Origin: Escherichia coli
GTDB lineage: Bacteria; Pseudomonadota; Gammaproteobacteria; Enterobacterales; Enterobacteriaceae
Assembly (NCBI RefSeq): GCF_048403405.1
Contig: NZ_CP183129.1
Strand: one strand, 5' to 3'
Length of the DNA: 64,000 bases
The notes under the pieces are model-generated. The model was not told where the DNA came from. It searched no databases and saw only the letters and a list, made by a program, of their open reading frames with translations. Position numbers and translations under genes: made by a program. Positions 33,894 to 56,798 of this stretch are shown piece by piece; the stretch's first letter is position 1, and the number at the start of each line of letters is the position of its first letter.

Positions 33894-34353
33894 CCGTCTA
33901 ACTCCGTGGTTAATGGGTGAGTGGTATTTTCTGTTGTGCAGAGCATGAGACGCTATTTGACCTGGCTGGTCAGTGGATGAAACAACAGATAAAGAAAAGG
34001 CGGACAATCCGCCCGCCTGTCATGATTTGTACTCACTTATTTCCCGACTGACAATTTACATAGCCAAAACGCTATCAAATCTGACAGTCTGCTTTGAGCG
34101 AGGAGCGGAAGTTAAGGGGCGGTTTAGTATCTAACATGATCTATATGAAATAGTGATTCTTGGCGTATTGCTAATACAACCCCGATTTGATGTAACTCTT
34201 GTCCACTTTCATCTAACTTCCTCTTGTTCAGGTTCATTTTTAACTGCTAATATGCAGTATATAAAGGAACATGGGTTTACCGTTGTAAGATGCTGCTGAA
34301 AGGTAAGCATAATTATATTGTTAGGTGTCTTTTTATTTTTAAAGGCTTTAAAC

Positions 34354-35460
34354 ATGTCTAAAACACGCGATGATTTCAGCTCAAAAACTGTAAGAGCTCT
34401 AGCACTACGGGCTGGTTATAGGTGCTCATTCCCCGGTTGTAATCAGCTTACAGTTGGCCCCAGTGATGAATCCTTAACATCTATCACAAATATTGGGGTA
34501 GCTGCGCACATTCATGCCGCAGCTCCTGGGCCATTAGCAAGACGATATGATCCTAATCAAACACCAGATGAAAGGAAAGATATAAATAATGGCATCTGGA
34601 TGTGTGTTAATCACAGCGTTGAAATTGATAGAGATGAAATTAGATATACAGCAGAAATTCTTAAAGAAATGAAGAAAGCCCACGAAGAAGAGATTAAAAA
34701 AGAGGTGAGCAATGGTTCTTCATCAACCAAACATAATGATTTCATTGCAATAGGTATAGACATTATCGTTTTCGGAGAGCTTACCGGAATCTCAACCAAT
34801 GAGTGGACTATAAAATTTGCAAACTTCTTTACTGGCGATTTATCTAAGTTAATATCTTTCAACGAAAGATTCCACTCCATCCCTACCGAAGAAAAATTTA
34901 TTCTAGTTAATCAACTTGGTGAGGGGCGTTTGTTATCAGCACCAATAAAATTAAATAAATTACCAGATAGCTATGAAGTAATCGTCCCTGTTGAAATAGA
35001 CACTCCGCGCATCAATTGCAATAGCCTCCCAATGGATTTAGATATTTTCACGACAGGCGATTTATTTGTAAATAGTTCTGGTGATATAGCTACGATATCG
35101 GGGTTTGAAGCTTTACCACAAAAAATATATACTTCCCTTTCCACCATTAGAGGTGAGATTTATTCCCATCCAACATTGGGTTCCAGAATAAGACAGTTCT
35201 TCCATGACTTTGAAGGAACAATGTGGCTAGACAAATTAGTTAAATTAGAAGTTATACGCTTATCTTGTATACCAATTTTTGATTCAATCACAAAAAACAA
35301 ATACACTCCATTACATTGTGTAAAAAATGTCAAAAATATTCGGGTGATACCAACTGAATATAAAGATAGCAAATTACCTATTGAGTTCACCCTTGATATT
35401 GAAGGTTTCGGCATCTGGTCCAAAGAAATAAGTGTTTTCTCACCTAAATACGATGAATAA
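34354..35460 (+). CDS. accessory (moron) protein with N-terminal HNH-nuclease-like motif; function unknown
   Basis: ORF 34318..35460 (TTG); probable ATG start 34354 with AAAGG SD. Motif RCSFPGC...AAHIHAAAPG...NNGIWMCVNHSVEID fits the HNH pattern; AT-rich; at the P2 Z/fun variable position. Confidence 0.6.
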   Translation: MSKTRDDFSSKTVRALALRAGYRCSFPGCNQLTVGPSDESLTSITNIGVAAHIHAAAPGPLARRYDPNQTPDERKDINNGIWMCVNHSVEIDRDEIRYTAEILKEMKKAHEEEIKKEVSNGSSSTKHNDFIAIGIDIIVFGELTGISTNEWTIKFANFFTGDLSKLISFNERFHSIPTEEKFILVNQLGEGRLLSAPIKLNKLPDSYEVIVPVEIDTPRINCNSLPMDLDIFTTGDLFVNSSGDIATISGFEALPQKIYTSLSTIRGEIYSHPTLGSRIRQFFHDFEGTMWLDKLVKLEVIRLSCIPIFDSITKNKYTPLHCVKNVKNIRVIPTEYKDSKLPIEFTLDIEGFGIWSKEISVFSPKYDE

Positions 35461-35932
35461 AATTGAAGTTCTTGAACCGCTATATTTGGCTCCGGTATTT
35501 ACTCCGTGAGTGGTATCCTAGGGCCCTGTGCGGAGGATTTCATTGTAATGCTCATACGCTGTAGCCAGGTTCATGTTTCTTCAGCAAGGCCATTTGGGCT
35601 AGTGGCCTGCTCCCCATTGCTCCACACAAAAAATTATTCGTTACGTCCGCTCCTGGCACACAGTAGACATCGAGAGACAGCTTCGAGCGATAATCAGAAG
35701 TTCGCAATTGTCATCACCCAAAAGTTGTTTATAACTTGTAGCAAGGTGCATTGTTCAACGTTGAGTTGGTCAAGTTCAGTTAATGATCGGACGATATCTC
35801 ACTCTGCCCAATAGCACATCTGTTTTACGGGAAGTGAGTTTCAACATCACGAGCTTTGTTAGTAAACATCACTTATTTATTAAGAATATGTTTCATAGAA
35901 CAGGGCCGGAGAACTTAATTTCATATTCTAAA

Positions 35933-35954
35933 AAGTGATGCGCAGACATCACTT
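35933..35954 (-). terminator. hairpin downstream of the 353-aa cargo gene
   Basis: AAGTGATG-cgcaga-CATCACTT about 30 nt after the stop at 35984. Confidence 0.35.
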
Positions 35955-35983
35955 TAAACTTTTTAAAGCGCGAAAACCCTACG

Positions 35984-37045
35984 TCAGAATTTGACAGTAG
36001 GAACGGTTGGCCAGATTCTAGCAATAGACTTAAACATAGTCTCCACAATATATTCGAGAACCTCATCATCAGGCTCTTTCATTAATGCTTTTACTTTATT
36101 TATTCTATCCTGAAGTGAAGGGTGAGATTTTGAAAAACCCCAGTTGTTTTTACCTAACATAGTAACGCTGAATAATGCACAGTATATAGAAAGTCTTCTT
36201 TTCCTGCTCACCAACACACGGTCATACATAGACTCTTCACAGTAATTATCTATATGGTCAAGGATGAATTTATTTGCAAACTCATCACATGAGAACTCTT
36301 CATTATGAGCTTGTTCTTGTGTGAATTCATTCATATCATAACTGGTACCTTCCTGCTGATGAATGATATGTCGGACTTCATGCAAAAATGCCCAAGCAGC
36401 AGCAATAATTGCTAATTCAGCTGTTGCTCTTTTAACTGGTTCGATTTTACTGTCAGGCATGGTGCCAGGTTCAGGAATTCCTATTGGTAGTGGTTTTTCA
36501 TCCGGTACCTCATCTTTAGCCGTGTTTTCAAAAGCGCAGATTAACTGTTCAAAGTTTACGAAGTCTGCCGAACTGAAATCAGCAAGTTCTTCCTGTAGCT
36601 CCTCGAGTAAAACATGTAATTCTGACTCGGTTGAGACTAATGATATTTTCTTTGAGTCAAAAAGATCTAAAATAGAATCCCTTTTATCGATAATGTCTTC
36701 AATTTTTTTATTTTGCTCAGTGTTTATTGCTTCGTAGCCCGCCATTGCAGCAAATGTTCCTATCCAGAACGTGCGCAAAACACGATGATTGAAGCGGATA
36801 AATCGATACATCCCCGCATCAAAAATAAATTTACCGTCTGTATGATTATCGCTATGATTTTGGAAGGTCATGTTAAATTTAGACCAGAACTCATCCAGTT
36901 CATTCTGACGCTCTGGAATAGAGGCTAAAAACATTTTTCTTACGCTGTCCTGAACTGTTTTATCTTCATTATGCTCTTCAAACATTTGCTCACCTATATT
37001 GCTGTTAATTTTATCTAATGATGAACCGAGTGGGTTGTTTACCAA
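35984..37045 (-). CDS. accessory (moron) protein with HEXXH motif (putative zinc metallopeptidase-like); function unknown
   Basis: ORF starts at TTG 37045; more likely ATG 36985 with AGGTGA SD. Motif FLHEVRHIIH; AT-rich; convergent with the HNH gene. Confidence 0.5.
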   Translation of the reverse strand: MVNNPLGSSLDKINSNIGEQMFEEHNEDKTVQDSVRKMFLASIPERQNELDEFWSKFNMTFQNHSDNHTDGKFIFDAGMYRFIRFNHRVLRTFWIGTFAAMAGYEAINTEQNKKIEDIIDKRDSILDLFDSKKISLVSTESELHVLLEELQEELADFSSADFVNFEQLICAFENTAKDEVPDEKPLPIGIPEPGTMPDSKIEPVKRATAELAIIAAAWAFLHEVRHIIHQQEGTSYDMNEFTQEQAHNEEFSCDEFANKFILDHIDNYCEESMYDRVLVSRKRRLSIYCALFSVTMLGKNNWGFSKSHPSLQDRINKVKALMKEPDDEVLEYIVETMFKSIARIWPTVPTVKF

Positions 37046-42340: not shown

Positions 42341-43126
42341 ATGGTCAGCTATAATGTGACTAATGTGTGGGGGCTAATCGTTTTTTTCCTTTGTAGCTTT
42401 GCAGTATTAGCATTTTTTAGCTTTGGTAAAAGTAACCTTATGAGGCTTATTGCACATTATTTCAATTTTGGATATTCAGACAAAAAATTAAAAAGACTTG
42501 ACCGCGAGTGGCGCGACATTCAACTATTTAAAATAATTAATGGAATCAATGTATCAGGCATTGAAAATGTGAGAATGATACAGCAGGGACTGATTGATGG
42601 AAAACTAAAAACATCGTATTTTTTCCTTACTCGCATCTGGGGTGACATAACAAAACCACCACACATAATTAAAACAATAATTGTAATTCTGGCCAGTATT
42701 TTTTACATTCTCCTCGCATGTTACATACACAACGAACAATCCGTTATAGTAAGGGATGCCATAGGCATACCATATAAAAACATGATGTACTATGTTTATA
42801 GTGACAAAGTTCTTTTATCCTTCAAAAATAAAGCAGTTGAATTTAATAAAACTTATAGCCTTGCCGATTGCAAGAGACTGCAAAACGTATTTATAAAAGA
42901 CACACTTCCTGAGATCGCCTGCAATAAGCTCTTACAGCTAAACGAGGAGGACTCCGAATGGTTAAGCCAGGAGATTAAAGATAATAACAGTCACAAAAAA
43001 GCATTATTAATACTATCCCTCGTCTATTTCACTTCAGGTCTGGTTATATTCCTGTCATATACAAAATTCTTTTACGCCAATAAGAAGGTTTTAGAATACA
43101 AAGCATCAAATAAAAATCACTCATAA
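42341..43126 (+). CDS. accessory membrane protein (3 predicted TM helices), function unknown
   Basis: 261-aa ORF with strong SD AAGGAGAG; very AT-rich; opposite strand to flanking V and S; at the P2 orf30 position. Confidence 0.6.
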   Translation: MVSYNVTNVWGLIVFFLCSFAVLAFFSFGKSNLMRLIAHYFNFGYSDKKLKRLDREWRDIQLFKIINGINVSGIENVRMIQQGLIDGKLKTSYFFLTRIWGDITKPPHIIKTIIVILASIFYILLACYIHNEQSVIVRDAIGIPYKNMMYYVYSDKVLLSFKNKAVEFNKTYSLADCKRLQNVFIKDTLPEIACNKLLQLNEEDSEWLSQEIKDNNSHKKALLILSLVYFTSGLVIFLSYTKFFYANKKVLEYKASNKNHS

Positions 43127-43197
43127 ACCTCTAAACATTGAGCGACCAGCATGGCCGCTCAATGTTTAATTGCGCATCAGCCTCTGCCTGGATAAAA

Positions 43198-43650
43198 CTA
43201 ACGCTCAAGGTGAGTCAGGATAATCTCTTCAATCATCTGCACATCCTCACCGGTAAAGCTGAGCAGAGGACGCGCCGGATAATCAATTTTCTTACCGTCT
43301 TTCCGGGTTTCTTCCGACAGACCGAACTGATGCACACTGGCGATTTTCGGCGACTTCCCGCCGTAAAATTCCATTGATGCCTGTTCCGGGCTGGCGCGGA
43401 TATGCAAAAAACGACTGGTGATAAGTTTCGCAAACATTTTTCGCTTAACACGACCGGTCTTTTTTCTGGCGCTCTGCTGCTGGCGTGGCGCGTAGGGTGT
43501 GCCGTCCGGGGCTTTCTGTGCCATCACCCGACGCTGCTGACTCTGCCGCAGACGCTTCGCCAGCTCTGCACTCAGCCGCCGACGCCCTGACGGTGACAGC
43601 GACTCAATCAGTCCGGTCAGCCGGTCTTCAAAACGCTTAAACTCATTCAT
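43198..43650 (-). CDS. S: tail completion protein S
   Basis: 150-aa ORF; P2 order. Confidence 0.85.
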   Translation of the reverse strand: MNEFKRFEDRLTGLIESLSPSGRRRLSAELAKRLRQSQQRRVMAQKAPDGTPYAPRQQQSARKKTGRVKRKMFAKLITSRFLHIRASPEQASMEFYGGKSPKIASVHQFGLSEETRKDGKKIDYPARPLLSFTGEDVQMIEEIILTHLER

Positions 43651-44110
43651 CCCACTTGCTCACCAGTTCGCCATTGATATAAAGCTCCATCGGGCGGGTG
43701 ACCGGCTCCGGCGGCGGGGGTTCCGGGATATTCTTCACATGCAGTGCGCCGTCCACCTCACTGACCAGCGTTCGCTCGGTCAGCATCAGGCTGATGCTGA
43801 TATCAAAGCTGCTGTCATTGTTGATGTCCGCATAAAACGTGAAGCCCTTTTTCTGGCCTGCGTCGGTGGTCATGATGTCGGGCTGATTTTCCCGCAGCCA
43901 CGCCAGCACCGGCACAATGAGCAGGTCAAAATCACCGGTAAAGTCGGTCACAATCACATTGAGCGTGTAACGCTTTTCGAATGACAGCGACGTCGCCAGT
44001 GTGGAGGCAATACTCCCGTTATCCACGAATATCCGCAGCATATCGGGGTTAGTTTTCAGCACCGTGACGGCATCAGTCAGCGCCCTGCGCAGGCTGTCGG
44101 GTTTGAGCAT
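43643..44110 (-). CDS. R: tail completion protein R
   Basis: 155-aa ORF; P2 order. Confidence 0.85.
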   Translation of the reverse strand: MLKPDSLRRALTDAVTVLKTNPDMLRIFVDNGSIASTLATSLSFEKRYTLNVIVTDFTGDFDLLIVPVLAWLRENQPDIMTTDAGQKKGFTFYADINNDSSFDISISLMLTERTLVSEVDGALHVKNIPEPPPPEPVTRPMELYINGELVSKWDE

Positions 44111-44363
44111 CGTTTTCGTCCTGACAGTGTTTAATCATTTTTACCTGGCTGGCACAGCGTGCCAGCGCGTTCTCAAGCTGCCGGATATCGGCACTTAAAT
44201 CGCCGTTCGTCTCCGGGTCACTGCCCGGCATCGGGCAAAGACTCACTTTCGGGCAGGCGTTGTGGACAATCACTGGCGTCAGTGCAGGCCGGACGCTGGT
44301 GCAACCGGCGCACAGCATCAGGCAGGTCAGCGCCATACCAGCGGCGAAAATCTTCGTTTTCAT
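44073..44363 (-). CDS. lysC: LysC (Rz1-like outer-membrane spanin lipoprotein), nested in lysB
   Basis: Frame inside lysB; MKTKIFAAGMALTCLMLCAGC lipobox; start placed at ATG 44363. Confidence 0.7.
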   Translation of the reverse strand: MKTKIFAAGMALTCLMLCAGCTSVRPALTPVIVHNACPKVSLCPMPGSDPETNGDLSADIRQLENALARCASQVKMIKHCQDENDAQTRQPAQGAD

Positions 44364-44652
44364 TGAGTAACCTCGTGATGGTTTTCTCGCGCTGTGCTTC
44401 ACGCTTCGCGGCGTTCTCCAGTTCCTGACGCAGTGCCACCTGCGCCAGCTCGTTTTTGTCTGCCCTGGTGAGCGCAACATGAAGCTGATTTTTCAGCATG
44501 GTGATGGTCGTCTGCTGCCCGCTGGCGACGTTGTTCGCCCTGTCCAGCGAGGCGCGCAGGCTGGCATTTTTGTGTTTCACCAGAAACAGACCGGCCACCG
44601 CCAGTGATAACAACACAACCAGCACAGTCATCAGCCTTGACATGGTTCCCAC
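44218..44652 (-). CDS. lysB: LysB (Rz-like inner-membrane spanin)
   Basis: 144-aa ORF, N-terminal TM then coiled coil. Confidence 0.8.
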   Translation of the reverse strand: MGTMSRLMTVLVVLLSLAVAGLFLVKHKNASLRASLDRANNVASGQQTTITMLKNQLHVALTRADKNELAQVALRQELENAAKREAQREKTITRLLNENEDFRRWYGADLPDAVRRLHQRPACTDASDCPQRLPESESLPDAGQ

Positions 44653-45056
44653 CCCTCAAAACGCTGACAGCAGGCCGTACGTATCAACCGGAAGAACACC
44701 GATGCCACAAGATAAATCAGCGCGGTAAAAATCCACCCGGCAGCGACCAGCGAGATAAACGTCGCCACCACCACTACCAGAGCCACTGCCCGTCTGCGCC
44801 ACGGCACCGGCTGCAAAAACAGCGACGTGACAATCTTCACGGCCAGCGATTCCGGCGGCAGCTCCCGTCCGTAGCGTTCCAGTACATACTCAGTGGCATA
44901 CATGCCGACACCACCGGCAACCACACAGATAACCGTCGCCAGAATCGCCCAGGTGGCGACAAAACTGACGGCCACGCTCTGCGGGTAAATCAGGGACAGT
45001 GCCAGCATCAGCGCCAGCGACACGTTCAGCATCAGTGAAAGGGATAATTTCTTCAT
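44631..45056 (-). CDS. lysA: LysA lysis-timing membrane protein
   Basis: 141-aa polytopic membrane ORF between K and lysB. Confidence 0.8.
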   Translation of the reverse strand: MKKLSLSLMLNVSLALMLALSLIYPQSVAVSFVATWAILATVICVVAGGVGMYATEYVLERYGRELPPESLAVKIVTSLFLQPVPWRRRAVALVVVVATFISLVAAGWIFTALIYLVASVFFRLIRTACCQRFEGWEPCQG

Positions 45057-45070
45057 GGTGTTTACTCCGT

Positions 45071-45568
45071 TTAAGCCGGTACGCCGCCAGCGGTACGCCA
45101 GACGGTGACCAGTTTTTCCAGTGAATGCTCACGCTGACCGTAACCGGCACCCGGCAGGGACGCCCAGATATTGCGACAGCGTGAAATGGCGCGTTCAATG
45201 CGTCCCGCCCGGATGTCATCCAGTGCACCGCGTTCGCGGATCAACTGAATGGCGAGTCTGTCCTGTGACAACGGACTGAAATCCGGCAGGGCAAGCTGTT
45301 TGCGGTAATGCGGCCAGAACAGGTAAAGCTGCTGATAGCGACCGGAGGCCGTTGATTTTTCACCGCGACGGTTAAACACCTTCGCCGGTCGGCCATGTGC
45401 GAACGGGTGGTCACTGTAGTCGGTGAAAATTTCCGGCTTTCCGTCCAGTCCGGTGACTATCACGTCATAGCCCCGGTTTTTCGTCAGCGGATGATTCGCC
45501 GTCCCTTCGGACACGGCCAGCATGTCGAGAAAGGCGGCGATATTCTGATGCGTGTTAATTACCGGCAT
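45071..45568 (-). CDS. K: endolysin K (lysozyme)
   Basis: 165-aa ORF MPVINTHQNIAAFLDMLAVSEGT...; matches P2 K. Confidence 0.9.
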   Translation of the reverse strand: MPVINTHQNIAAFLDMLAVSEGTANHPLTKNRGYDVIVTGLDGKPEIFTDYSDHPFAHGRPAKVFNRRGEKSTASGRYQQLYLFWPHYRKQLALPDFSPLSQDRLAIQLIRERGALDDIRAGRIERAISRCRNIWASLPGAGYGQREHSLEKLVTVWRTAGGVPA

Positions 45569-45849
45569 TACGGTTTCCCCCTGCCCTTAAAGCGGCGCTG
45601 AATGGCAATCTCAATCACCTGATAACCGGCGATACCCAGCATGGAGCCGATGCCGCACACCGCAGGCAGTGACAGGTCAGGAAACTGCACCAGAACAACA
45701 CCGGCAACCATCGAGACAAAACCACCGAGTAACATGCGCCCGATAAACAGACGCGGGGTGATGGGTTCACCACCGGCAAGCACCTTGCCGACAACAATCA
45801 GCACCCCAATCATGAAAAGCGACAGGACGCTTTTTTCTTCTGCTGTCAT
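45568..45849 (-). CDS. Y: holin Y
   Basis: 93-aa membrane ORF directly upstream of K. Confidence 0.85.
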   Translation of the reverse strand: MTAEEKSVLSLFMIGVLIVVGKVLAGGEPITPRLFIGRMLLGGFVSMVAGVVLVQFPDLSLPAVCGIGSMLGIAGYQVIEIAIQRRFKGRGKP

Positions 45850-45852
45850 GCG

Positions 45853-46056
45853 TTACTCCCACAGATTGACAGTTTCAGCCACGGGCGCGGTCTGAACGTC
45901 GGGCAGTTCGACGGCGGTGCCGTGCGGCAGCACCGCACCCAGTTCAGCCAGTCCCGGATTTGCGGCGAGCACGGCCTCGACCACGCCCTCAGTGCGCCCG
46001 TAATACCGGACACAGATGGCGTCGAGCGTGTCGCCCTGTAGCGCAAAGGTCTTCAT
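45853..46056 (-). CDS. X: tail protein X
   Basis: ORF 45853..46125; start placed at ATG 46056 (MKTFALQGDTLDAICVRYYG...), 67 aa. Confidence 0.85.
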   Translation of the reverse strand: MKTFALQGDTLDAICVRYYGRTEGVVEAVLAANPGLAELGAVLPHGTAVELPDVQTAPVAETVNLWE

Positions 46057-46565
46057 CAGATTTGACTCACAATGCAGCGCGGCTTGTCCTGGATTCGCGC
46101 CACTGCCCAGCGCATATCCCGCCACAGCTCATCAATGGTGCTGTCAATGCTGTCGGCCTTCTTGTCGCCTTTGGCACTGGCATCCACGCCGCGATAACGC
46201 TCATAAAGCGACGCGGTCGCCATCGCACACACGGCGCGCTCGTAGTAAAAAACTTTGATGCTTTCACCGTCGATGTCGTCCGCCGGGACTTCCGCCAGAC
46301 ACGTAAAACCGGCGGCAATTTTCTGTTCGCGGTACTCGTACAGCTCCGCATTCGTCTCCGCCATGCCTGACTTGATGGCCTCACGCAGACGGGCGGGGGC
46401 GACGGTCTGCTCAAGGCGCATACGTTCCCGGACGCGCTTCGGGTCGATATCGGGAAAAAAGAACGTGTTTTTAATCACCGGCTCGTCGCCTGCCGGTTGC
46501 GGGATGACCACCGTACCCTCACCGGACACGGGAGCCTCCTTTCGCGGAATAATCAGCGTCATCAT
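46056..46565 (-). CDS. L: head completion/stabilisation protein L
   Basis: ORF 46056..46625; start placed at ATG 46565 (MMTLIIPRKEAP...), 169 aa. Confidence 0.85.
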   Translation of the reverse strand: MMTLIIPRKEAPVSGEGTVVIPQPAGDEPVIKNTFFFPDIDPKRVRERMRLEQTVAPARLREAIKSGMAETNAELYEYREQKIAAGFTCLAEVPADDIDGESIKVFYYERAVCAMATASLYERYRGVDASAKGDKKADSIDSTIDELWRDMRWAVARIQDKPRCIVSQI

Positions 46566-46664
46566 GACTACCTCTGAAAAGTCGGGCGGTGGACGCCGGT
46601 GCAGTGTCAGGTGATTCACCCTCACTGACCGGCGTGCCGCCCTGGCGCGGGGCGCATTCGGTTG

Positions 46665-47408
46665 TTAACTGGCTTTCTTTTTCGGGCGTCCACGTTTTGC
46701 CGGTGTCACGCTCCGGGTCTTACGCGGGGCGCGGGTGGCCGCTTTGGGCTGCGGCTCCGGCTTCGGTTTCAGCTCCCGCTCCAGTCGTTCAATCTCTTTT
46801 TTGACGCCTGCCTGACAGTCGAGCTGTGTCGCACGTTGCAGGTGCGCCAGCGCGCCGGCGGCATCACCAGCGTCACGCAGAAACAGACCGGTGATTTTGT
46901 GCAGCTTTGCGCGCACTTCATCAGGCATGTCAGCCGTGGCGGTCAGTTCAAGGGTGTCCGTCAGCAGGCGGGGATCCACAGACTCACCGGCAGCGTGAGC
47001 GCGCATGGCCGCAAGCGCCACCTCCTCGGTGAACATGTACGGCGGGGTGCGGCGGTGTTTCCCCGGCATGGTCAGACCATACTTCAGGGCATAACGGGCA
47101 ATCTCCAGCGCACCGGCAATATCGCCGGTATCCAGACGCCACAGCATGACCGTCATCAGAATGTCATCCTGTGCACCTTTGCCCTGCTCCAGCACGCCGT
47201 TCACCCACGGCAACCAGAACGGCAGCAGTTCGCGTTTTTTCGCGGCCTTCAGCTCTTTTGAATAAATCGCTTTCAGTGTGCGCTGGTCTGCGGCCAGCTT
47301 GACCAGCATCTGCTCATAGACAGTTGCATGTCGCAGCGGGGCGGCTTCCCGCTGCGCGGTCATCGCTGCCGAGACCCGCATCATGTGGCGCTGTGCGGGA
47401 CTCGTCAT
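46665..47408 (-). CDS. M: terminase endonuclease subunit M
   Basis: 247-aa ORF; P2 order. Confidence 0.87.
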   Translation of the reverse strand: MTSPAQRHMMRVSAAMTAQREAAPLRHATVYEQMLVKLAADQRTLKAIYSKELKAAKKRELLPFWLPWVNGVLEQGKGAQDDILMTVMLWRLDTGDIAGALEIARYALKYGLTMPGKHRRTPPYMFTEEVALAAMRAHAAGESVDPRLLTDTLELTATADMPDEVRAKLHKITGLFLRDAGDAAGALAHLQRATQLDCQAGVKKEIERLERELKPKPEPQPKAATRAPRKTRSVTPAKRGRPKKKAS

Positions 47409-47411
47409 CGG

Positions 47412-48485
47412 TTACGCTCCCGGCTCTGCGGTCGCTTTAGCCGGTGTGGAGAAATCACCGACCTTAATTTTTTCCACCAGACAACCGGCGGCGTAGTCTT
47501 CCACCACGTAATCAATGTTCATTGACTCGTAGTTCTCCACGCGGTCGAGTTTCGGGTTTTCCACAATCACGCGGCGATGGCTGTCATCCATGTAGTAGAT
47601 GGACAGGTTTTCCAGCTTCGTGATGAGCATCGCATCCGCCGGGAAGTACGGGACGCGTACCGCCGGCAGGTTGCCGATGCGTTTCTGGCTGATGATGACG
47701 TCAGCGGCCAGCATCTCGCTGTTGTCCTGCTCCTTGTTAACGATGGGGAAATACTTGTCCGCCAGTAGCTGACGCCCCACAATCACCACAAGGTCAGGGT
47801 CTTCCTGATACCACGGCTCAATCAGGTTGTTGGTCGCATCCATCACCAGTGCATCGAGGCTGGCATAATCACCACCCTTACCCACGCGGATGACCTCAGA
47901 GGTGGTGTGACCTTCCTCGTCAGTAACCTTGCTCATCACGCGCGCCGGGGCTTCATTGCGGTATTTCTGCAGCCAGCCGACCGCCACATCCTGCAGCATC
48001 GGATTGCTGCTGCGGTCAGAGGTTTCGGCACGCTTCACGCCGTTAAAACCGGCCATGATGAAATCAAGGGACTGGCGTTTGATAATGGCGTTACGGATAC
48101 GGAGCTGGAAATCCTGATAACGCGCCCACAGGTCCAGCGTTTTGTAGCGGATATAAAAATCGAAGTTAATCTGGTCGCATTCGTACTTGTTTGACGCCAG
48201 CTTCGAGAAGTCCTTCGGCTGACGCTCGGTGCCACCGGCGGTGTCGGTGGTGCTGGCGATGGAGCCGGTGACACCAATACCAATTTTTTCCCCTTTCATT
48301 TCGCTGACCGGCACAATGTTGATGCGGGTCAGAAAATCAGAGGACTCCTGCATGGTGTTCATCAGGATCTGGGTGACCGACGGTTCAACGGTGAATTTTT
48401 TCGACACATCACCGGCGTCGATGCCGTTCAGTTCGGCAACACGGGACAGGTAGGCATTAAATTTAAAGCGGGTTTCCTGGCGCAT
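47412..48485 (-). CDS. N: major capsid protein N
   Basis: 357-aa ORF; P2 order. Confidence 0.9.
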   Translation of the reverse strand: MRQETRFKFNAYLSRVAELNGIDAGDVSKKFTVEPSVTQILMNTMQESSDFLTRINIVPVSEMKGEKIGIGVTGSIASTTDTAGGTERQPKDFSKLASNKYECDQINFDFYIRYKTLDLWARYQDFQLRIRNAIIKRQSLDFIMAGFNGVKRAETSDRSSNPMLQDVAVGWLQKYRNEAPARVMSKVTDEEGHTTSEVIRVGKGGDYASLDALVMDATNNLIEPWYQEDPDLVVIVGRQLLADKYFPIVNKEQDNSEMLAADVIISQKRIGNLPAVRVPYFPADAMLITKLENLSIYYMDDSHRRVIVENPKLDRVENYESMNIDYVVEDYAAGCLVEKIKVGDFSTPAKATAEPGA

Positions 48486-48543
48486 AGTTTTTCCTGAAAT
48501 TAAGGGTTAATCGTGAAGGTTTTCCCGGACTGACTGACGCCGG

Positions 48544-49398
48544 TCAGCAGTTCGTCATCAGGGCGTCACCGCCACCGCCGGTGGCCTTGCTGCGGCGCTG
48601 CTGGGTCAGACTTTCGGTGTGGTCGAGGCTGTTTTTCAGGCGGGTGAATGCCTGGCTGGTTTCATCCGCCCTGTCAGTCACCTCCTGCTTAAGTGCGGAA
48701 AAGGCGGTTTCCATCTCAGCGAGGCGCTGCTCAGTGGCGCTCAGTTTTTCCTGCACATGTTCAGCAACAGCGGTCACCGCTTCATGCACGTCATTCAGAC
48801 GGGCGTCATCGCTGGCCTGTTTGCGGCCAAAAATGGATTTCACCTTTTCGGTCAGGGCGGTGAACACGGTTTCAGGCAGGTCTTCAAATTCCAGCTCAAC
48901 AGGCGTTGCCACTGAAATCAGGTTTTCAGGGCTTAATTTGAAGCGGTTCAGGGGGTTGTGTTTTGCCGTGCGGCAGAATTCCAGGTATTCCGTGCCGAGG
49001 CTTGCCGGGTCATCGGTGACGGCCAGACCCACCAGATAACATTTGCCGGTATTGGCAAAGTTCGGCTGAATTTCCATTGAGGTATAGACCTTCTGCGCGG
49101 CCTTGTTCATCGCGATAAGGTCATCGGTCGGGGTGATTTTCGCAAACAGCGCCCATTTGCCTTTCAGCGCCGAATCATCGTCAATCTTTTCGGCCTTCAG
49201 TTCGACCACATCGCCATAACGCTTAAAAATGCCGTCAGGCAGGATGCCGCGCAGATGTTCCAGGTTAATGCGGCAACCATAGACTCGCGGGTCAAAGGTT
49301 TCGGCCATTTCCTGAATATCCTGCGCACTGATGACACGCCCGTCACAGGTGTCACCCTCAACGCCGATACGAAAGAATTTTGAGACTTTTTTTGCCAT
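48544..49398 (-). CDS. O: capsid scaffolding protein O
   Basis: ORF 48544..49464; start placed at ATG 49398 (MAKKVSKFFRIGVEGDT...), 284 aa. Confidence 0.88.
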   Translation of the reverse strand: MAKKVSKFFRIGVEGDTCDGRVISAQDIQEMAETFDPRVYGCRINLEHLRGILPDGIFKRYGDVVELKAEKIDDDSALKGKWALFAKITPTDDLIAMNKAAQKVYTSMEIQPNFANTGKCYLVGLAVTDDPASLGTEYLEFCRTAKHNPLNRFKLSPENLISVATPVELEFEDLPETVFTALTEKVKSIFGRKQASDDARLNDVHEAVTAVAEHVQEKLSATEQRLAEMETAFSALKQEVTDRADETSQAFTRLKNSLDHTESLTQQRRSKATGGGGDALMTNC

Positions 49399-49571
49399 TG
49401 TCAGGAGTCCTGAATAGTGATTAGAGGAGTCACATGTCGGCATCAGTTTCCCGACGATGCGCATCCTCCGCCATCAGTCCCGGATGGCTTATCACTGACA
49501 CAACAGCACCTTAGCGAATCGCAGGGCGCGACTCAGTAGCCTTGCCGTGTATTCATCACGGCGAGGTATTC
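49399..49571. promoter_or_regulatory. divergent late promoter region between O and P
   Basis: 173-bp gap between divergent late operons; dyad GCCGTG-tattcat-CACGGC at about 49533-49553; P2 late promoters are Ogr-dependent. Confidence 0.4.
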
Positions 49572-51344
49572 ATGACCATCACCACAGACACCACTCTTTT
49601 ACACGACCCGCGTCGTCAGGCGGCGCTGCTGTACTGGCAGGGGTTTTCCGTGCCGCAGATTGCCGCCATGTTGCAGATGAAACGCCCGACGGTGCAGAGC
49701 TGGAAACAGCGCGACGGCTGGGACAGCGTTGCCCCCATCAGCCGTGTCGAAATGAGTCTGGAAGCGCGGCTGACCCAGCTCATCATCAAACCGCAGAAAA
49801 CCGGCGGTGACTTCAAGGAAATTGACCTGCTGGGACGCCAGATTGAACGACTGGCACGGGTCAACCGCTACAGCCAGACCGGCAACGAGGCAGACCTTAA
49901 TCCGAACGTCGCTAACCGCAACAAAGGCGGGCGGCGCAAACCGAAAAAGAATTTTTTCAGTGACGAGGCCATCGAAAAGCTGGAGCAGATTTTCTTTGAG
50001 CAGTCTTTCGAATATCAGTTGCACTGGTATCGCGCCGGGCTTGAGCACCGCATCCGCGATATCCTGAAATCCCGCCAGATTGGCGCGACGTTTTATTTTT
50101 CCCGCGAGGCGCTGCTGCGCGCCCTGAAAACCGGTCATAACCAGATTTTTCTGTCGGCCAGTAAAACGCAGGCGTATGTGTTCCGCGAATACATCATCGC
50201 CTTTGCCCGTCTGGTTGACGTTGACCTGACCGGTGACCCGATTGTCCTGGGCAATAACGGCGCAAAACTGATTTTTCTCGGCACCAACTCCAACACCGCG
50301 CAGAGCCATAACGGCGACCTGTACGTCGACGAGATTTTCTGGATCCCGAATTTTCAGGTACTGCGTAAGGTGGCATCAGGTATGGCCTCACAGAGTCACC
50401 TGCGCTCGACCTATTTCTCCACCCCGTCCACGCTGGCACACGACGCCTACCCGTTCTGGTCGGGTGAACTGTTCAACCGGGGACGCGCCAGCGCCGCCGA
50501 ACGCGTGGAAATCGACGTCAGTCATAACGCCCTTGCCGGTGGGCTTCTCTGTGCGGACGGCCAGTGGCGACAGATTGTCACCATTGAGGACGCCCTGAAA
50601 GGCGGCTGCACGCTGTTCGACATTGAGCAGCTCAAACGCGAAAACAGCGCCGACGATTTTAAAAACCTGTTCATGTGTGAATTTGTTGACGACAAGGCGT
50701 CGGTGTTCCCGTTTGAGGAGCTGCAACGCTGCATGGTCGACACGCTGGAAGAATGGGAAGACTATGCGCCGTTTGCCGCAAATCCGTTCGGCTCCCGACC
50801 GGTATGGATTGGTTACGACCCGTCACACCGTGGCGACAGCGCAGGATGCGTGGTACTGGCACCGCCGGTGGTGGCCGGTGGCAAATTCAGGATCCTTGAG
50901 CGTCACCAGTGGAAAGGCATGGACTTTGCCACTCAGGCTGAATCCATCCGCAAACTCACCGAAAAATACAACGTCGAATACATCGGTATTGATGCCACCG
51001 GCCTCGGTGTCGGCGTGTTCCAGCTCGTGCGCTCGTTCTATCCCGCCGCGCGCGACATCCGCTACACGCCGGAAATGAAAACCGCAATGGTGCTCAAGGC
51101 AAAAGACGTCATCCGCCGTGGCTGTCTGGAATATGACGTCAGCGCCACCGACATCACCAGCTCGTTTATGGCTATCCGCAAGACCATGACCAGCAGCGGA
51201 CGCAGCGCCACCTATGAGGCCAGCCGCAGCGAGGAAGCCAGCCACGCCGACCTCGCCTGGGCGACCATGCACGCCCTGTTAAATGAGCCACTCACCGCCG
51301 GTATCAGCACCCCGCTGACATCCACCATTCTGGAGTTTTACTGA
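49572..51344 (+). CDS. P: terminase ATPase (large) subunit P
   Basis: ORF 49542..51344; start placed at ATG 49572 with GAGGT SD (MTITTDTTLLHDPRRQAALLYWQ...), 590 aa. Confidence 0.9.
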   Translation: MTITTDTTLLHDPRRQAALLYWQGFSVPQIAAMLQMKRPTVQSWKQRDGWDSVAPISRVEMSLEARLTQLIIKPQKTGGDFKEIDLLGRQIERLARVNRYSQTGNEADLNPNVANRNKGGRRKPKKNFFSDEAIEKLEQIFFEQSFEYQLHWYRAGLEHRIRDILKSRQIGATFYFSREALLRALKTGHNQIFLSASKTQAYVFREYIIAFARLVDVDLTGDPIVLGNNGAKLIFLGTNSNTAQSHNGDLYVDEIFWIPNFQVLRKVASGMASQSHLRSTYFSTPSTLAHDAYPFWSGELFNRGRASAAERVEIDVSHNALAGGLLCADGQWRQIVTIEDALKGGCTLFDIEQLKRENSADDFKNLFMCEFVDDKASVFPFEELQRCMVDTLEEWEDYAPFAANPFGSRPVWIGYDPSHRGDSAGCVVLAPPVVAGGKFRILERHQWKGMDFATQAESIRKLTEKYNVEYIGIDATGLGVGVFQLVRSFYPAARDIRYTPEMKTAMVLKAKDVIRRGCLEYDVSATDITSSFMAIRKTMTSSGRSATYEASRSEEASHADLAWATMHALLNEPLTAGISTPLTSTILEFY

Positions 51345-52363
51345 TGAGCAAGAAAAAAGGGAAAACACCGCAACCTGCGGCAAAAAAAATGACCGCCAGC
51401 GCCCCGAAAATGGAGGCATTCACCTTTGGCGAGCCGGTGCCGGTACTCGACCGCCGTGACATTCTGGATTACGTCGAGTGCATCAGTAACGGCAGATGGT
51501 ATGAGCCGCCGGTCAGCTTTACCGGTCTGGCGAAAAGCCTGCGTGCTGCCGTGCATCACAGCTCGCCGATTTACGTCAAACGCAATATTCTGGCCTCGAC
51601 ATTTATCCCGCATCCGTGGCTTTCCCAGCAGGATTTCAGCCGCTTTGTGCTGGATTTTCTGGTGTTCGGTAATGCGTTTCTGGAAAAGCGTTACAGCACC
51701 ACCGGTAAGGTCATCAGACTGGAAACCTCACCGGCAAAATATACCCGCCGTGGCGTGGAGGAGGATGTTTACTGGTGGGTGCCGTCCTTCAACGAGCCGA
51801 CAGCCTTCGCGCCCGGCTCCGTGTTTCACCTGCTGGAGCCGGATATCAATCAGGAGCTGTACGGCCTGCCGGAATATCTCAGCGCCCTTAACTCTGCCTG
51901 GCTGAATGAGTCGGCCACGCTGTTCCGCCGCAAGTATTACGAAAACGGCGCTCATGCCGGATACATCATGTATGTCACCGATGCCGTGCAGGATCGCAAC
52001 GATATCGAAATGCTTCGCGAAAACATGGTGAAGTCGAAAGGCCGCAACAACTTTAAAAACCTGTTTCTCTATGCCCCACAGGGGAAAGCCGACGGCATTA
52101 AAATTATCCCCCTCAGTGAAGTGGCGACGAAGGACGATTTTTTTAATATCAAAAAAGTCAGCGCCGCAGATCTCCTGGACGCACACCGCATCCCCTTTCA
52201 GTTGATGGGCGGTAAGCCGGAGAATGTCGGGTCACTAGGAGATATTGAAAAAGTGGCAAAGGTCTTTGTCCGCAATGAACTCACTCCATTACAGGAGAGA
52301 ATAAAGTCAATAAATGAATGGTTAGATATGGAAGTCATAAAATCCCTTGATTATAACTTATAA
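51344..52363 (+). CDS. Q: portal protein Q
   Basis: 339-aa ORF overlapping the P stop; P2 order. Confidence 0.88.
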   Translation: MSKKKGKTPQPAAKKMTASAPKMEAFTFGEPVPVLDRRDILDYVECISNGRWYEPPVSFTGLAKSLRAAVHHSSPIYVKRNILASTFIPHPWLSQQDFSRFVLDFLVFGNAFLEKRYSTTGKVIRLETSPAKYTRRGVEEDVYWWVPSFNEPTAFAPGSVFHLLEPDINQELYGLPEYLSALNSAWLNESATLFRRKYYENGAHAGYIMYVTDAVQDRNDIEMLRENMVKSKGRNNFKNLFLYAPQGKADGIKIIPLSEVATKDDFFNIKKVSAADLLDAHRIPFQLMGGKPENVGSLGDIEKVAKVFVRNELTPLQERIKSINEWLDMEVIKSLDYNL

Positions 52364-52375
52364 GTAAATATATAA

Positions 52376-52402
52376 AGTTGGCGGAATGCAATCCCGCCAA
52401 CT
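52376..52402. terminator. bidirectional terminator hairpin between Q and the convergent RT-module
   Basis: AGTTGGCGG-(loop)-CCGCCAACT between convergent genes. Confidence 0.5.
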
Positions 52403-52405
52403 TAA

Positions 52406-53113
52406 CTATATATACTTCCTTTTTACTCTACTTAATTCTATCACTGATGAGGAGTGACAAAATGACAAATTAATAGTATCGATATAATCCAAAATTTGAC
52501 TCTCAACCTCAATAAAAATATTTTTGGGCCCATTACTAATCGATATACCGATTTCATCCAAAACAGCCATCATTTTTCTCTGATGAGTTTTATATTTATA
52601 GTCTTTATTTTCCTCTGTAATATGTGCATTGGCTTCCTCAATAACACATTTGATTCTAGATATTATTTCTAGATAATCTCTCGAAACAGATATATCACCG
52701 CCTTGCGCTTCAGGGAACATAACCCTATACCATCTAAAAAAATTAACTTTCTCTGGATAGATGCTACTTCTTTTAGTTAACTCAGCACTTGCAAATTCTC
52801 TAAACATCGTCAGATGACTAGTGTAATTACTATTATTATTATTTTTAACTCCAGCGTTATATGTCATCAAAGCAATCATAACACCAAAAACGGTAACAAA
52901 AGTTGTTATAAGCCATCCAAACGCCTGAAAATACATTACTATACCAGATGTTTTTTCCGCAAAAAATTTTAAGCACTGGCTATCGAAGCATATATCACGC
53001 TCATATAGCTTTTCATTCTGAATAGTTTCAAAAAGAGAAATTAGCGAAAAAATCAAAAAAAGAGCTGACGACACACCGACAATATATTTGAGAAGTCTAA
53101 TATTTGCATTCAT
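52406..53113 (-). CDS. 2-TM membrane protein, translationally coupled to the upstream reverse transcriptase (candidate effector)
   Basis: 235 aa; start ATG overlaps the RT stop (ATGA at 53113-53110); two N-terminal hydrophobic helices; AT-rich. Confidence 0.6.
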   Translation of the reverse strand: MNANIRLLKYIVGVSSALFLIFSLISLFETIQNEKLYERDICFDSQCLKFFAEKTSGIVMYFQAFGWLITTFVTVFGVMIALMTYNAGVKNNNNSNYTSHLTMFREFASAELTKRSSIYPEKVNFFRWYRVMFPEAQGGDISVSRDYLEIISRIKCVIEEANAHITEENKDYKYKTHQRKMMAVLDEIGISISNGPKNIFIEVESQILDYIDTINLSFCHSSSVIELSRVKRKYI

Positions 53114-54384
53114 AATGGTTTTAAAGATGCCAATCTAGATTTAAAACACTCCAGTTTTTCTTTAAATGATTCAGAGCGAGTAAGAATAATCATCTTATAT
53201 CTCGTCAAATCATATTTTCTTTTATACCAATGTTTATTTTGATTACCTTTCGAATACGACAACTCTAAACTTTTTATAGCTGCATCAATCACAGCAACAT
53301 CTCTTTTAGATGGCATCGGTTTTATTGCCTGCAACTGTTTCTTGAATGATTCATATTTTTCATGCCCAACACGGCCAAGCTTATTCACTCTCCCCATACA
53401 TCTATTGAATTCTTTTCTGTATGCAACACTTGTTTTTGTGTTATTTTTTGCCGCCAGTAATTTCAAATTATGTATAGATGCCCTGATTCTTTTGACTTCA
53501 TCGGATGGTAGTCGAGGTGAGTCATAGTCAACTCTTAAACCATGTACTTTTATAGGTTCAGATGAACAGTGAAATATTTTTGTTTTGTGCTTATTTATCG
53601 GCAAGTCATGCTCAGAAAGCATCCTCTCTATATGGCTTTGCATTTGAGAAAAATCATAATTACTTATTTTAGATGACACGGTAATATCATCTACCAAACG
53701 CGTATAAACAAGTCCTTTCCTCTGCGCACGTCTTACCACATCCCCTTCAACAGCGAATAAACACAAAGTTGCTATATAGCTTGATGTTAAGGCCCCCTGT
53801 ACGACAAAATCATCCTTAGTACATATATCCACCAAGTATTCAAGAGCCTCATCCTTAATATGCAATATCTCCTCAAACACGCTCCTAACCAGATCTCTAT
53901 GGATATTATCGAAAAAATTACTTATATCCACCTTGAGAACTGTTTTTGCTCCACAATGAGCCTTTGCACATGAAACATAGTCACGTTTGACATTAGAATT
54001 TAAAACATCATTTTTACTGGGAACTGAACCAAACAAAAATGAAGGAAAAACAACCAATTCCTTAAAAATACGTTTATTAATTCTACTCTGTAATAATCTC
54101 ATTTTAGGATGTAGGGAGTAGACAATCCGTTTGCTTCCGTCAATTTTGGGAATTTCTTTTAGAGTATATTTCTCATCTAATGATAATTCTGCAATAGCTT
54201 TAAGCTCTTCAACAGAAATCGATAAAGCCTTTGACAACTTTTCAAGTGTTGTGATAGGAGCATTGGATTTGCTGTATGGTTTAAATTTATCCATAAACAT
54301 ACCATTCAAATTCAAAGTTACGTACGGTCTTCCCATACTCAAGGGTGGAACAGCAGAGATGCTTACATCAACAATTGTCAGCAA
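53110..54384 (-). CDS. retron-type reverse transcriptase with about 100-aa C-terminal extension
   Basis: RT motifs IPKIDGSKRIVY, CAKAHCGAKTVLKVDISNFFDNI, QGALTSSYIATLCL, YTRLVDDITV (YxDD), IKVHGL. Track start is TTG 54384; in-frame ATGs at 54336, 54300, 54294. Confidence 0.75.
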   Translation of the reverse strand: MLTIVDVSISAVPPLSMGRPYVTLNLNGMFMDKFKPYSKSNAPITTLEKLSKALSISVEELKAIAELSLDEKYTLKEIPKIDGSKRIVYSLHPKMRLLQSRINKRIFKELVVFPSFLFGSVPSKNDVLNSNVKRDYVSCAKAHCGAKTVLKVDISNFFDNIHRDLVRSVFEEILHIKDEALEYLVDICTKDDFVVQGALTSSYIATLCLFAVEGDVVRRAQRKGLVYTRLVDDITVSSKISNYDFSQMQSHIERMLSEHDLPINKHKTKIFHCSSEPIKVHGLRVDYDSPRLPSDEVKRIRASIHNLKLLAAKNNTKTSVAYRKEFNRCMGRVNKLGRVGHEKYESFKKQLQAIKPMPSKRDVAVIDAAIKSLELSYSKGNQNKHWYKRKYDLTRYKMIILTRSESFKEKLECFKSRLASLKPL

Positions 54385-54625
54385 CAGCCTCTGCTATCTT
54401 TCGACCGTACGTAATGTCGTCGGCTACGGCACCATCGTAGTTGACGACGGTGGGGCCTCGCTGATAGGTCCATAGTGGACGCTTTTTTGTAAAAGCAAAA
54501 ACTGACAATTTAATGTTGTTGACTGCCGCATACCAAGCGAATCGCTGGTGCGCTAAGAATAATGCAACAAAAAAATAAGAATTTCAACCGGGTAACTGCA
54601 AGCCAGCGACATCGTTTAGCGCGCA

Positions 54626-54644
54626 GTGCTTTCCCCGCCTCGCC
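54626..54644. other. phage cos site (19-nt cohesive-end sequence)
   Basis: GTGCTTTCCCCGCCTCGCC is the reverse complement of the P2 cohesive end GGCGAGGCGGGGAAAGCAC as I recall it; located between Q and the A-side genes as in P2. Confidence 0.7.
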
Positions 54645-54805
54645 CGCCCGCTTCGTGGGGCGGTTTTAATGCAGGTGCAATACCGCTTTTGAGCCACGCC
54701 CGTCCTGGCGGACGCACGGCCGGAACATGCAACTCCGGCACATGCAAAACCATGCACATATTGCACGCAGAAAGATAAATGCCAAAATACCTAAATCAAC
54801 TTCCA

Positions 54806-56644: not shown

Positions 56645-56798
56645 TCCTCACCTTTAAAGCACTTAACAAACAATCATGGTAAACAATACCAAACTGCAAG
56701 CAACGATTAAATACAGAAAACTCTTTCTGTCGAGATTTTTCAATAACACTAAATATATACAGTACGAAATTATCTAATATTGCGTGAATTTTTGCCAT
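56631..56798 (-). CDS. small hypothetical protein (55 aa) coupling gene A to the 612-aa gene
   Basis: ATG 56798-56796 overlaps the A stop (TAATG); its 3' end overlaps the 612-aa gene start by 14 nt. Confidence 0.35.
   Translation of the reverse strand: MAKIHAILDNFVLYIFSVIEKSRQKEFSVFNRCLQFGIVYHDCLLSALKVRNERV

Follow-up and report, generated by a model that had tools for sequence, protein, structure and literature searches.

A P2-type lysB/lysC spanin gene pair of overlapped architecture in an Escherichia coli prophage

Results

The lysis locus of a P2-type prophage

We analysed a 64-kb stretch of E. coli DNA (hereafter the window), in which both the list of open reading frames and the sequence itself place two genes, lysB and lysC, on the minus strand between positions 44073 and 44643. 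Our results indicate that this locus is almost certainly the two-component spanin of a P2-type (Peduovirus) prophage resident in the E. coli chromosome. In support of this, a megablast search with positions 43600-46200 matched Peduovirus P2 and P2-like phages along the full length of the query, with identities of 97-98%. The 580-nt stretch that holds the pair was 100% identical to at least five complete E. coli genomes, in which PGAP names the genes lysB and lysC; this allele is thus a common one, with identical copies in several E. coli genomes, and of the 5426 complete E. coli genomes, 1603 carried related copies of the stretch. The ogr-bearing end of the prophage adjoins focA-pflB, and the surrounding window is E. 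coli chromosome. The prophage itself looks complete and of the P2 type. The features of the locus are as follows.

45568-45849, minus strand: Y, holin, 93 aa (PF04550 Phage_holin_3_2, 2.6e-42; 92/93 aa identical to P2 gpY)
45071-45568, minus strand: K, endolysin, 165 aa (165/165 aa identical to P2 gpK; PGAP: glycoside hydrolase family 104 protein)
44631-45056, minus strand: lysA, membrane protein of 141 aa, whose last 13 nt are shared with the start of lysB (131/141 aa identical to P2 LysA; NF038378, 1.4e-33)
44218-44643, minus strand: lysB, i-spanin, 141 aa (TIGR03495, phrog_89 and identity to P2 LysB at 138/141 aa)
44578-44634, minus strand: single transmembrane helix of LysB, residues 4-22, LMTVLVVLLSLAVAGLFLV, following M-S-R (Kyte-Doolittle)
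44371-44374, minus strand: GAGG Shine-Dalgarno of lysC, 7 nt before its ATG and within lysB (upstream sequence ending in CACGAGGTTACTCA, directly followed by ATG)
44073-44363, minus strand: lysC, o-spanin precursor, 96 aa, predicted mature form of 76 aa from Cys21 (NF038368, PF23793, phrog_456 and identity to P2 LysC at 88/96 aa)
44218-44363, minus strand: dual-coding zone of 146 nt, encoding LysB residues 94-141 and, in the +1 frame, LysC residues 1-48
44301-44315, minus strand: codons of the LysC lipobox, L17-C18-A19-G20-C21; in the lysB frame these nucleotides read A110-V-R-R-L-H115
44148-44166, minus strand: perfect 8-bp hairpin GCUGGCAC-GCU-GUGCCAGC inside lysC (P2 record feature 8399-8417)
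44073-44110, minus strand: 38-nt overlap between the 3' end of lysC and the start of the tail-completion gene R, 43643-44110 (ORF coordinates)
43198-43650, minus strand: ORF matching PF05069 (1.4e-42)

Y, K and lysA lie immediately upstream of lysB on the same strand, and the P2 reference record NC_001895 has Y, K, lysA, lysB (426 nt), lysC (291 nt), R and S in identical order and at identical lengths; beyond S, that record continues with Orf30 on the opposite strand and then V. The initial annotation had regarded the lysis cassette as intact, and we agree: none of the five genes from Y to lysC differs from its P2 counterpart in length, start codon or stop codon, none has an internal stop, and their identities to P2 are those listed above. 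Downstream, the products of R and S are identical to their P2 counterparts at 152/155 and 146/150 aa, respectively, and the gene R product matched PF06891 (P2_Phage_GpR) at 3e-45.

The hairpin within lysC is labelled in the P2 record (8399-8417) as a 'putative transcription attenuator; O operon', and its sequence in the window is identical. Note that the hairpin is followed by no U-tract and was missed by the terminator scan, and that its 71-nt context showed no folding advantage over shuffled sequences (z = -0.5). An Rfam scan of positions 43000-56900 at the gathering thresholds found no RNA family, the spanin region included, and no retron msr.

LysB, the inner-membrane component

LysB matched the NCBIfam equivalog TIGR03495, 'Rz-like lysis system protein LysB', scoring 171.8 bits where the cutoff is 92.75 (E 8.4e-51, with the match spanning positions 2-135 of the 135-position model), and phrog_89 (Rz-like spanin) at E 4.3e-60. 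In the Pfam scan of LysB (E<=0.01) the sole match was a sub-threshold one to DUF5937, and a PDB profile search with the LysB alignment gave only spurious matches to designed repeat proteins and no solved relative. The Kyte-Doolittle profile (19-residue window) reached its maximum of 2.84 at residue 4, this being the sole hydrophobic segment of the protein, with Arg3 on its N side. Judging by this charge, LysB would be a type II membrane protein, with the N-terminus inside and the remainder in the periplasm. It has two periplasmic cysteines, the same count that SpaninDB gives for P2. In the AF2 model, built on an alignment of 14 sequences (mean pLDDT 83.5), a continuous helix runs through residues 3-104, comprising the anchor and a periplasmic stalk, and is followed by a short helix (109-116) and a disordered, low-confidence tail.

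Translation of lysB starts at the ATG at 44643, which serves as the start codon in P2 and in the PGAP annotation and is preceded by the ribosome-binding site GGGGTGGG. The GTG at 44652, which the ORF lister had taken as the maximal start, sits within GGGGTGGG of this ATG and serves as the start in neither P2 nor PGAP. Thus, of the span 44073-44652 first assigned to the pair, the lower end coincides with the lysC stop, and the upper end has to be moved from this GTG to the ATG at 44643.

LysC, the lipoprotein component

The alternative-frame ORF that contains lysC is open from 44480 to 44073. Within it, lysC begins at the ATG at 44363, reads MKTKIFAAGMALTCLMLCAGC... and stops at 44073; the GAGG motif in front of this ATG is the same Shine-Dalgarno that SpaninDB gives for P2 lysC. 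LysC matched NF038368 (P2_Rz1, 'Rz1-like lysis system protein LysC') with 125.3 bits (cutoff 27; E 7.8e-37), Pfam PF23793 with 60.4 bits (cutoff 27; E 1.6e-16) and phrog_456 at E 1.5e-31. These family matches, together with the identity of both proteins to P2, uphold the earlier naming of the genes as the P2 lysB/lysC spanin pair.

The mature part of LysC carries four periplasmic cysteines beyond the putative lipid-bearing one, which again equals the SpaninDB count for P2; the periplasmic cysteines of both proteins would thus be available for disulfides between them. The AF2 model, likewise built on 14 aligned sequences (mean pLDDT 73.6, above 90 for roughly residues 50-80) has a signal-peptide helix at residues 6-21, an extended stretch at 22-52 with C37 and C43, and a confident helix at 53-89 with C70 and C80. 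A PDB profile search with the LysC alignment returned nothing, and hence no solved relative. The predicted models of the two proteins are in agreement with the shapes of an i-spanin (LysB) and an o-spanin (LysC).

The two genes are overlapped

lysC begins 280 nt into lysB, in the +1 frame. Its 291 nt are made up of 146 nt inside lysB and 145 nt past the lysB stop, the latter comprising 107 nt that are free of other genes and 38 nt in R. Kongari et al. 2018 (PMC6139136) define three spanin gene architectures, and in the 'overlapped' one (Summer 2007; Kongari 2018) the start of the o-spanin gene falls within the i-spanin gene, whereas its end lies beyond the i-spanin stop. Since the lysC stop lies 145 nt past that of lysB, inside R, the lysB/lysC pair has the overlapped two-component architecture and not the embedded one of lambda. 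The sources on P2 describe the same arrangement: SpaninDB classes P2 as 'ovl'; Lynch et al. 2010 (PMC3091744) report that P2 lysC begins in the +1 register inside lysB and terminates in R, out of frame with it, in contrast to lambda Rz1, which lies wholly in Rz; and the PGAP product note calls the genes 'substantially overlapping although not fully embedded'. The pair had been described at the outset as nested, in the classical embedded arrangement, and this has to be corrected, given that 146 of the 291 nt of lysC are inside lysB and that its end is in R; the accompanying remark that this is known P2 biology agrees with SpaninDB and with Lynch et al. 2010.

We compared the locus with its relatives by fetching 12 further loci, which makes 14 in all and covers seven host genera; the further loci come from phages of Salmonella, Erwinia, Klebsiella, Yersinia, Burkholderia and Pseudomonas, and their LysC identity runs from 74% down to 33%. 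In every one of the 14, lysC is read in the +1 frame and shares 146-170 nt with lysB, continues for 94-157 nt after the lysB stop and ends 8-62 nt inside R.

The lipobox of LysC

The N-terminus of LysC resembles a lipoprotein signal: it has an n-region with K2 and K4, an uncharged core and a terminal A-G-C21, after which the predicted mature protein would begin C-T-S, with Thr at +2. In E. coli, sorting by the Lol system follows the +2 rule; since LysC has no Asp at this position, sorting to the outer membrane is expected.

LysC matched neither the strict PROSITE pattern PS51257 nor the DOLOP consensus [LVI][ASTVI][GAS]C, and satisfied the relaxed rule only. The strict patterns fail because of the Cys at -3; a further Cys lies at -7 in the signal. 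Across the whole 64-kb window the relaxed lipoprotein rule picked out three loci, namely lysC, a host lipoprotein gene at 17980 and a probably spurious ORF at 51462. For P2 LysC, whose C-region is identical to the one found here, SpaninDB gives the lipobox as LCAG/C and the LipoP sites as 20/21 and 17/18, with the remark 'No hit by Prosite'. C21 is invariant in the 14 LysC sequences, down to 33% identity, and at this column the box is LSGC in phages of Yersinia, Klebsiella and Salmonella, LAGC in the Pseudomonas phage and LCAC in those of Burkholderia. As canonical boxes occupy the same column in relatives, C21 is the predicted lipidated residue.

We considered reading the failure of the strict patterns as evidence that LysC is no lipoprotein, and rejected this in view of the invariant Cys21, the canonical boxes of the relatives and the identical SpaninDB remark for P2. 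Thus, the invariant Cys, these boxes and the curated family models support LysC as a lipoprotein-type precursor. The initial annotation had likewise seen such a precursor in another frame of lysB, and the +1 frame and LCAGC at residues 17-21 bear it out; for its lipobox the outcome is mixed, with the invariant Cys, the LSGC and LAGC boxes and the family models in favour and the strict consensus patterns against.

The codons of this lipobox are tied to those of a conserved LysB motif, A/V-V-R-R-L-H. The C21 codon, TGC, consists of positions 2-3 of the LysB Leu114 codon and position 1 of His115; likewise, the TGC at -3 consists of positions 2-3 of Val111 and position 1 of Arg112. With Val111 and Arg112 fixed in LysB, the -3 residue of LysC is limited to Phe, Ser, Tyr or Cys.

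Conservation of the overlap zone

In the alignment of 14 LysC sequences the invariant residues are M1, G9, C14, L15, C21, C37, C43, N53, L56, A66, C70, V74 and Q81, with C80 nearly so. Residues 94-120 are the most conserved stretch of LysB, with a majority fraction of 0.69 versus 0.44 (14 loci). We had expected conservation to be complementary in the overlap zone, with one frame kept where the other is free; this idea was dropped, as per-column conservation of the two frames was positively correlated (r = 0.50, 14 loci). The high conservation of the overlap fits a double constraint, and may also reflect a functional C-terminal region of LysB.

The window differs from P2 by 17 substitutions in 571 nt. 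Nine of them fall in the overlap zone, and each of these nine is silent in one of the two frames and changes the residue in the other; seven affect lysB third positions, which are lysC second positions. As a consequence of this bias, LysC differs from P2 at eight residues (R2K, T10M, V11A, A24V, P25R, P28L, P34H and Q51E) and LysB at three (I6T, M130L and P135S); seven of the eight LysC changes stem from third-position changes that are synonymous in lysB. Three prolines of P2 LysC have been lost in the linker after Cys21.

Comparison with known spanins

The locus is closest to P2 LysB/LysC (NC_001895, P2p11/P2p12), with which it shares the order Y-K-lysA-lysB-lysC-R-S, the lengths of 141 and 96 aa, the +1 frame, the 146-nt overlap with lysB and the 38-nt overlap with R, the GAGG Shine-Dalgarno, the LCAGC lipobox and the hairpin, at 96-97% nucleotide identity. 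The loci of other Peduoviridae (Fels-2/SEN8, Eganvirus SW9/EtG, Burkholderia KL3/KS14/phiE094 and Pseudomonas Dobby) are also overlapped in the +1 frame, by 146-170 nt, and in their LysC proteins the predicted lipidated Cys and three further Cys are invariant. They differ in LysC identity (33-74%), in the extent of the R overlap (8-62 nt) and in the lipobox, which is canonical or near-canonical in these phages (LSGC, LAGC, LCAC), the form in the P2/Eganvirus group being CAGC or CVGC.

As occurs with lambda Rz/Rz1, the predicted design pairs a type II inner-membrane protein with an outer-membrane lipoprotein encoded in the +1 frame, and the pair comes last in the lysis cassette. The gene layouts differ: lambda Rz1 is confined to Rz, and lysC continues beyond the end of lysB into R. 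Mature LysC (76 aa) is also longer than Rz1, less proline-rich (7 Pro) and has a predicted C-terminal helix of 37 residues, and its four conserved periplasmic Cys compare with a single one, C29, in Rz1. P2 lysB and lysC together reportedly complement lambda Rz/Rz1 null mutants. Since neither protein has a Pfam Rz/Rz1 match at E<=0.01, the mechanistic analogy to lambda is drawn from this published complementation and not from homology.

Alternative explanations

We weighed four other readings of the locus, two of which concern the limits of the genes. That the pair is of the lambda type, with the lipoprotein gene wholly within the i-spanin gene, is suggested by the start of lysC inside lysB in the +1 frame, just as Rz1 starts in Rz, and is extremely improbable: lysB stops at 44218 and lysC only 145 nt later, at 44073 in gene R, and the same layout holds in all 14 relatives; the lambda Rz and Rz1 Pfam models gave no match at E<=0.01 (only PF23793 was found, for LysC); and the literature places P2 in the overlapped class. 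The coordinates already refute embedding; the lysB TGA lies at 44218-44220 and further stops follow beyond it in the lysB frame. There is a slim chance that lysC is made from the internal Met10 (ATG at 44336, giving 87 aa) instead of Met1, since the PGAP CDS in NZ_CP095533, where the stretch is identical, begins at the equivalent of window position 44336. Residue 10 is Met in this allele and Thr in P2, so Met10 is allele-specific, whereas Met1 is invariant in the 14 homologues, all of which keep the start column. Moreover, a Met10 start would leave 11 residues before Cys21 with no Lys/Arg n-region, on which even the relaxed lipoprotein rule fails, and 44336 has no Shine-Dalgarno, in contrast to the GAGG in front of 44363. 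On these grounds, the lysC start was kept at 44363.

The other two readings concern what the genes do. The +1-frame ORF could in principle be a chance open frame that is not translated, and when the synonymous codons of lysB were shuffled 20,000 times, 81% of the shuffles indeed left the +1 frame open over the final 146 nt, which makes an open frame by itself weak evidence. However, just 0.1% of these shuffles yielded a lipoprotein-like signal that begins with Met. Together with the match to the curated equivalog NF038368 (7.8e-37), the five invariant Cys, a start, a Shine-Dalgarno and an architecture that are kept in seven host genera even at 33% identity, and the single difference from P2 in the 107-nt stretch that only lysC occupies, this leaves the chance reading with practically no probability. 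It would also be very surprising if LysB and LysC acted only as regulators of lysis timing and did not form a complex that disrupts the outer membrane. This reading draws on the notes in the P2 record ('nonessential; affects timing of lysis', 'regulation of lysis') and on the name 'lysis regulatory protein' that several phage records keep. Against it, the predicted topology and anatomy match an i-spanin/o-spanin pair, the current curated names are those of Rz-like and Rz1-like lysis system proteins, and spanin reviews treat P2 LysB/LysC as a paradigm of the two-component spanin. Effects on timing are, in any case, compatible with a spanin role.

Discussion

We have described an overlapped two-component spanin gene pair in a P2-type prophage of E. 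coli. The pair is an ordinary one and represents known, already described P2 biology. Its mode of action can be proposed from the literature on the P2 and lambda spanins, from which lipidation, sorting, complex formation and membrane fusion are carried over here. LysB would be anchored in the inner membrane by its one N-terminal helix and would expose a helix of about 80 residues and the conserved C-terminal region in the periplasm. Translation of lysC from its own GAGG and ATG within lysB, in the +1 frame, would supply the o-spanin, whose signal peptide would be cut before Cys21; this residue would then be lipidated, and the Thr at +2 would direct the protein to the outer membrane. LysB and LysC would join via their C-terminal parts, bridging the periplasm through the murein meshwork. 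Once endolysin K, released through holin Y, has degraded the murein, the spanin complexes would be freed and would fuse the two membranes, thereby disrupting the outer one as the final event of lysis.

The way in which the LysC lipobox is coupled to the conserved LysB motif is a neat example of a dual-coding constraint and leaves the known picture of spanins unchanged. One could go further and suppose that the CAGC lipobox is a by-product of dual coding with the conserved LysB V-R-R-L-H, and that the o-spanins of the P2 group are processed sub-optimally, or at either of two cysteines, C18 or C21, in line with the two LipoP sites of P2. We regard this reading, which builds on the codon relations described above, as unlikely; if true, it would represent a natural, overlap-constrained lipoprotein signal that tunes spanin dosage or the timing of lysis.

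The importance of the locus beyond correct annotation is slight. Overlapped o-spanin genes are often missed, truncated or mis-started by gene callers: in SW9, EtG, RCIP0057 and ST11-OXA245phi3.1 lysC is annotated only as a stub of 48-52 aa, and in vB_YenM_31.17, 4LV2017 and Dobby it is unannotated; the PGAP start at Met10 in the identical E. coli copy is a further case. As for the prophage, it has retained the complete P2 lysis cassette and is thus plausibly lysis-competent.

Prophage extent and divergent regions

Comparison with the genes of phage P2 (NC_001895) delimited a P2-type prophage in the window, with the host focA-pflB genes adjoining its ogr end:

window ~27200-62700: entire P2-type prophage

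Judged from its gene content, this prophage looks complete: all of the P2 essential genes have full-length matches in the window, with 88-100% amino acid identity, the exceptions being int, C and cox, and the C-terminal part of the tail fibre gene H (52% identity to P2). Since int, C and cox are just 40-53% identical to their P2 counterparts, the sequences indicate an immunity and integration module other than that of P2.

Two features were recorded in the interval between S and V:

42341-43126, + strand: AT-rich homologue of P2 Orf30, 261 aa, 99.6% amino acid identity, between S and V
43130-43170: inverted repeat AACATTGAGCG...CGCTCAATGTT, between S and orf30, which are convergent

Orf30 has hydrophobic segments at its N- and C-terminal ends and matched no family in Pfam, NCBIfam or PADLOC; it is a P2 gene in a known cargo position. 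The inverted repeat was not detected by a simple terminator scan, and the P2 record labels its position 'putative rho-independent terminator for O operon'.

Annotation of the lysis genes

We found that public records disagree on the annotation of lysC, both in the PGAP-annotated copy and in the phage loci compared (L005-L009, L013 and L015). In the identical E. coli copy, PGAP starts the gene at Met10 (window position 44336), giving 87 aa (1817-2080 in locus L004). Four phage records give lysC only as a 48-52-aa stub starting at the lysB stop, and three others leave it unannotated. The full lysC ORF, with its signal peptide, was found in every mis-annotated case.

The naming of LysA was also considered:

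44631-45056, - strand: LysA, 141 aa, very hydrophobic

P2 LysA is described as an antiholin by Lynch 2010 (PMC3091744). Both PHROGs (phrog_162) and the P2 entry of RefSeq nevertheless tag it 'endolysin', which looks like a propagated misnomer, the true muramidase being K (45071-45568).

Candidate defence genes

In the Z/fun slot of P2, between the tail-fibre assembly gene G and the sheath gene FI (window 34318-37045), we found two non-P2 ORFs, which are probably anti-phage cargo:

34318-35460, + strand: 380-aa ORF with an endonuclease-like N-terminal region (PDC-M68A, 1e-23; CBASS-effector endonuclease models, ~1e-20)
35984-37045, - strand: 353-aa ORF, Lit-like (9.5e-10) / Peptidase_U49 (3.7e-6)

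The tin, old and orf91 genes of P2 had no counterparts anywhere in the window in the gene comparison, and the tin/old slot holds a single ORF, which matches a PADLOC candidate defence family, PDC-S39:

54806-56644, - strand: 612-aa ORF (PDC-S39, 2e-68; Pfam DUF7380, 1.9e-24)

Finally, an insert of two genes, absent from P2, separates the cos site from Q, the portal gene:

52406-54384, perhaps extending to ~54620, - strand: two-gene insert
53110-54384, - strand: reverse transcriptase, 424 aa (PADLOC RT_IV, 1e-176; Pfam RVT_1, 1.7e-31)
52406-53113, - strand: 235-aa protein following the reverse transcriptase (PADLOC 2TM_IV, 4e-85)

An Rfam scan of 43000-56900 at gathering thresholds found none of the msr/msd RNA expected upstream of the reverse transcriptase. 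Taken together, the reverse transcriptase and the 235-aa protein resemble a retron defence system of type IV.
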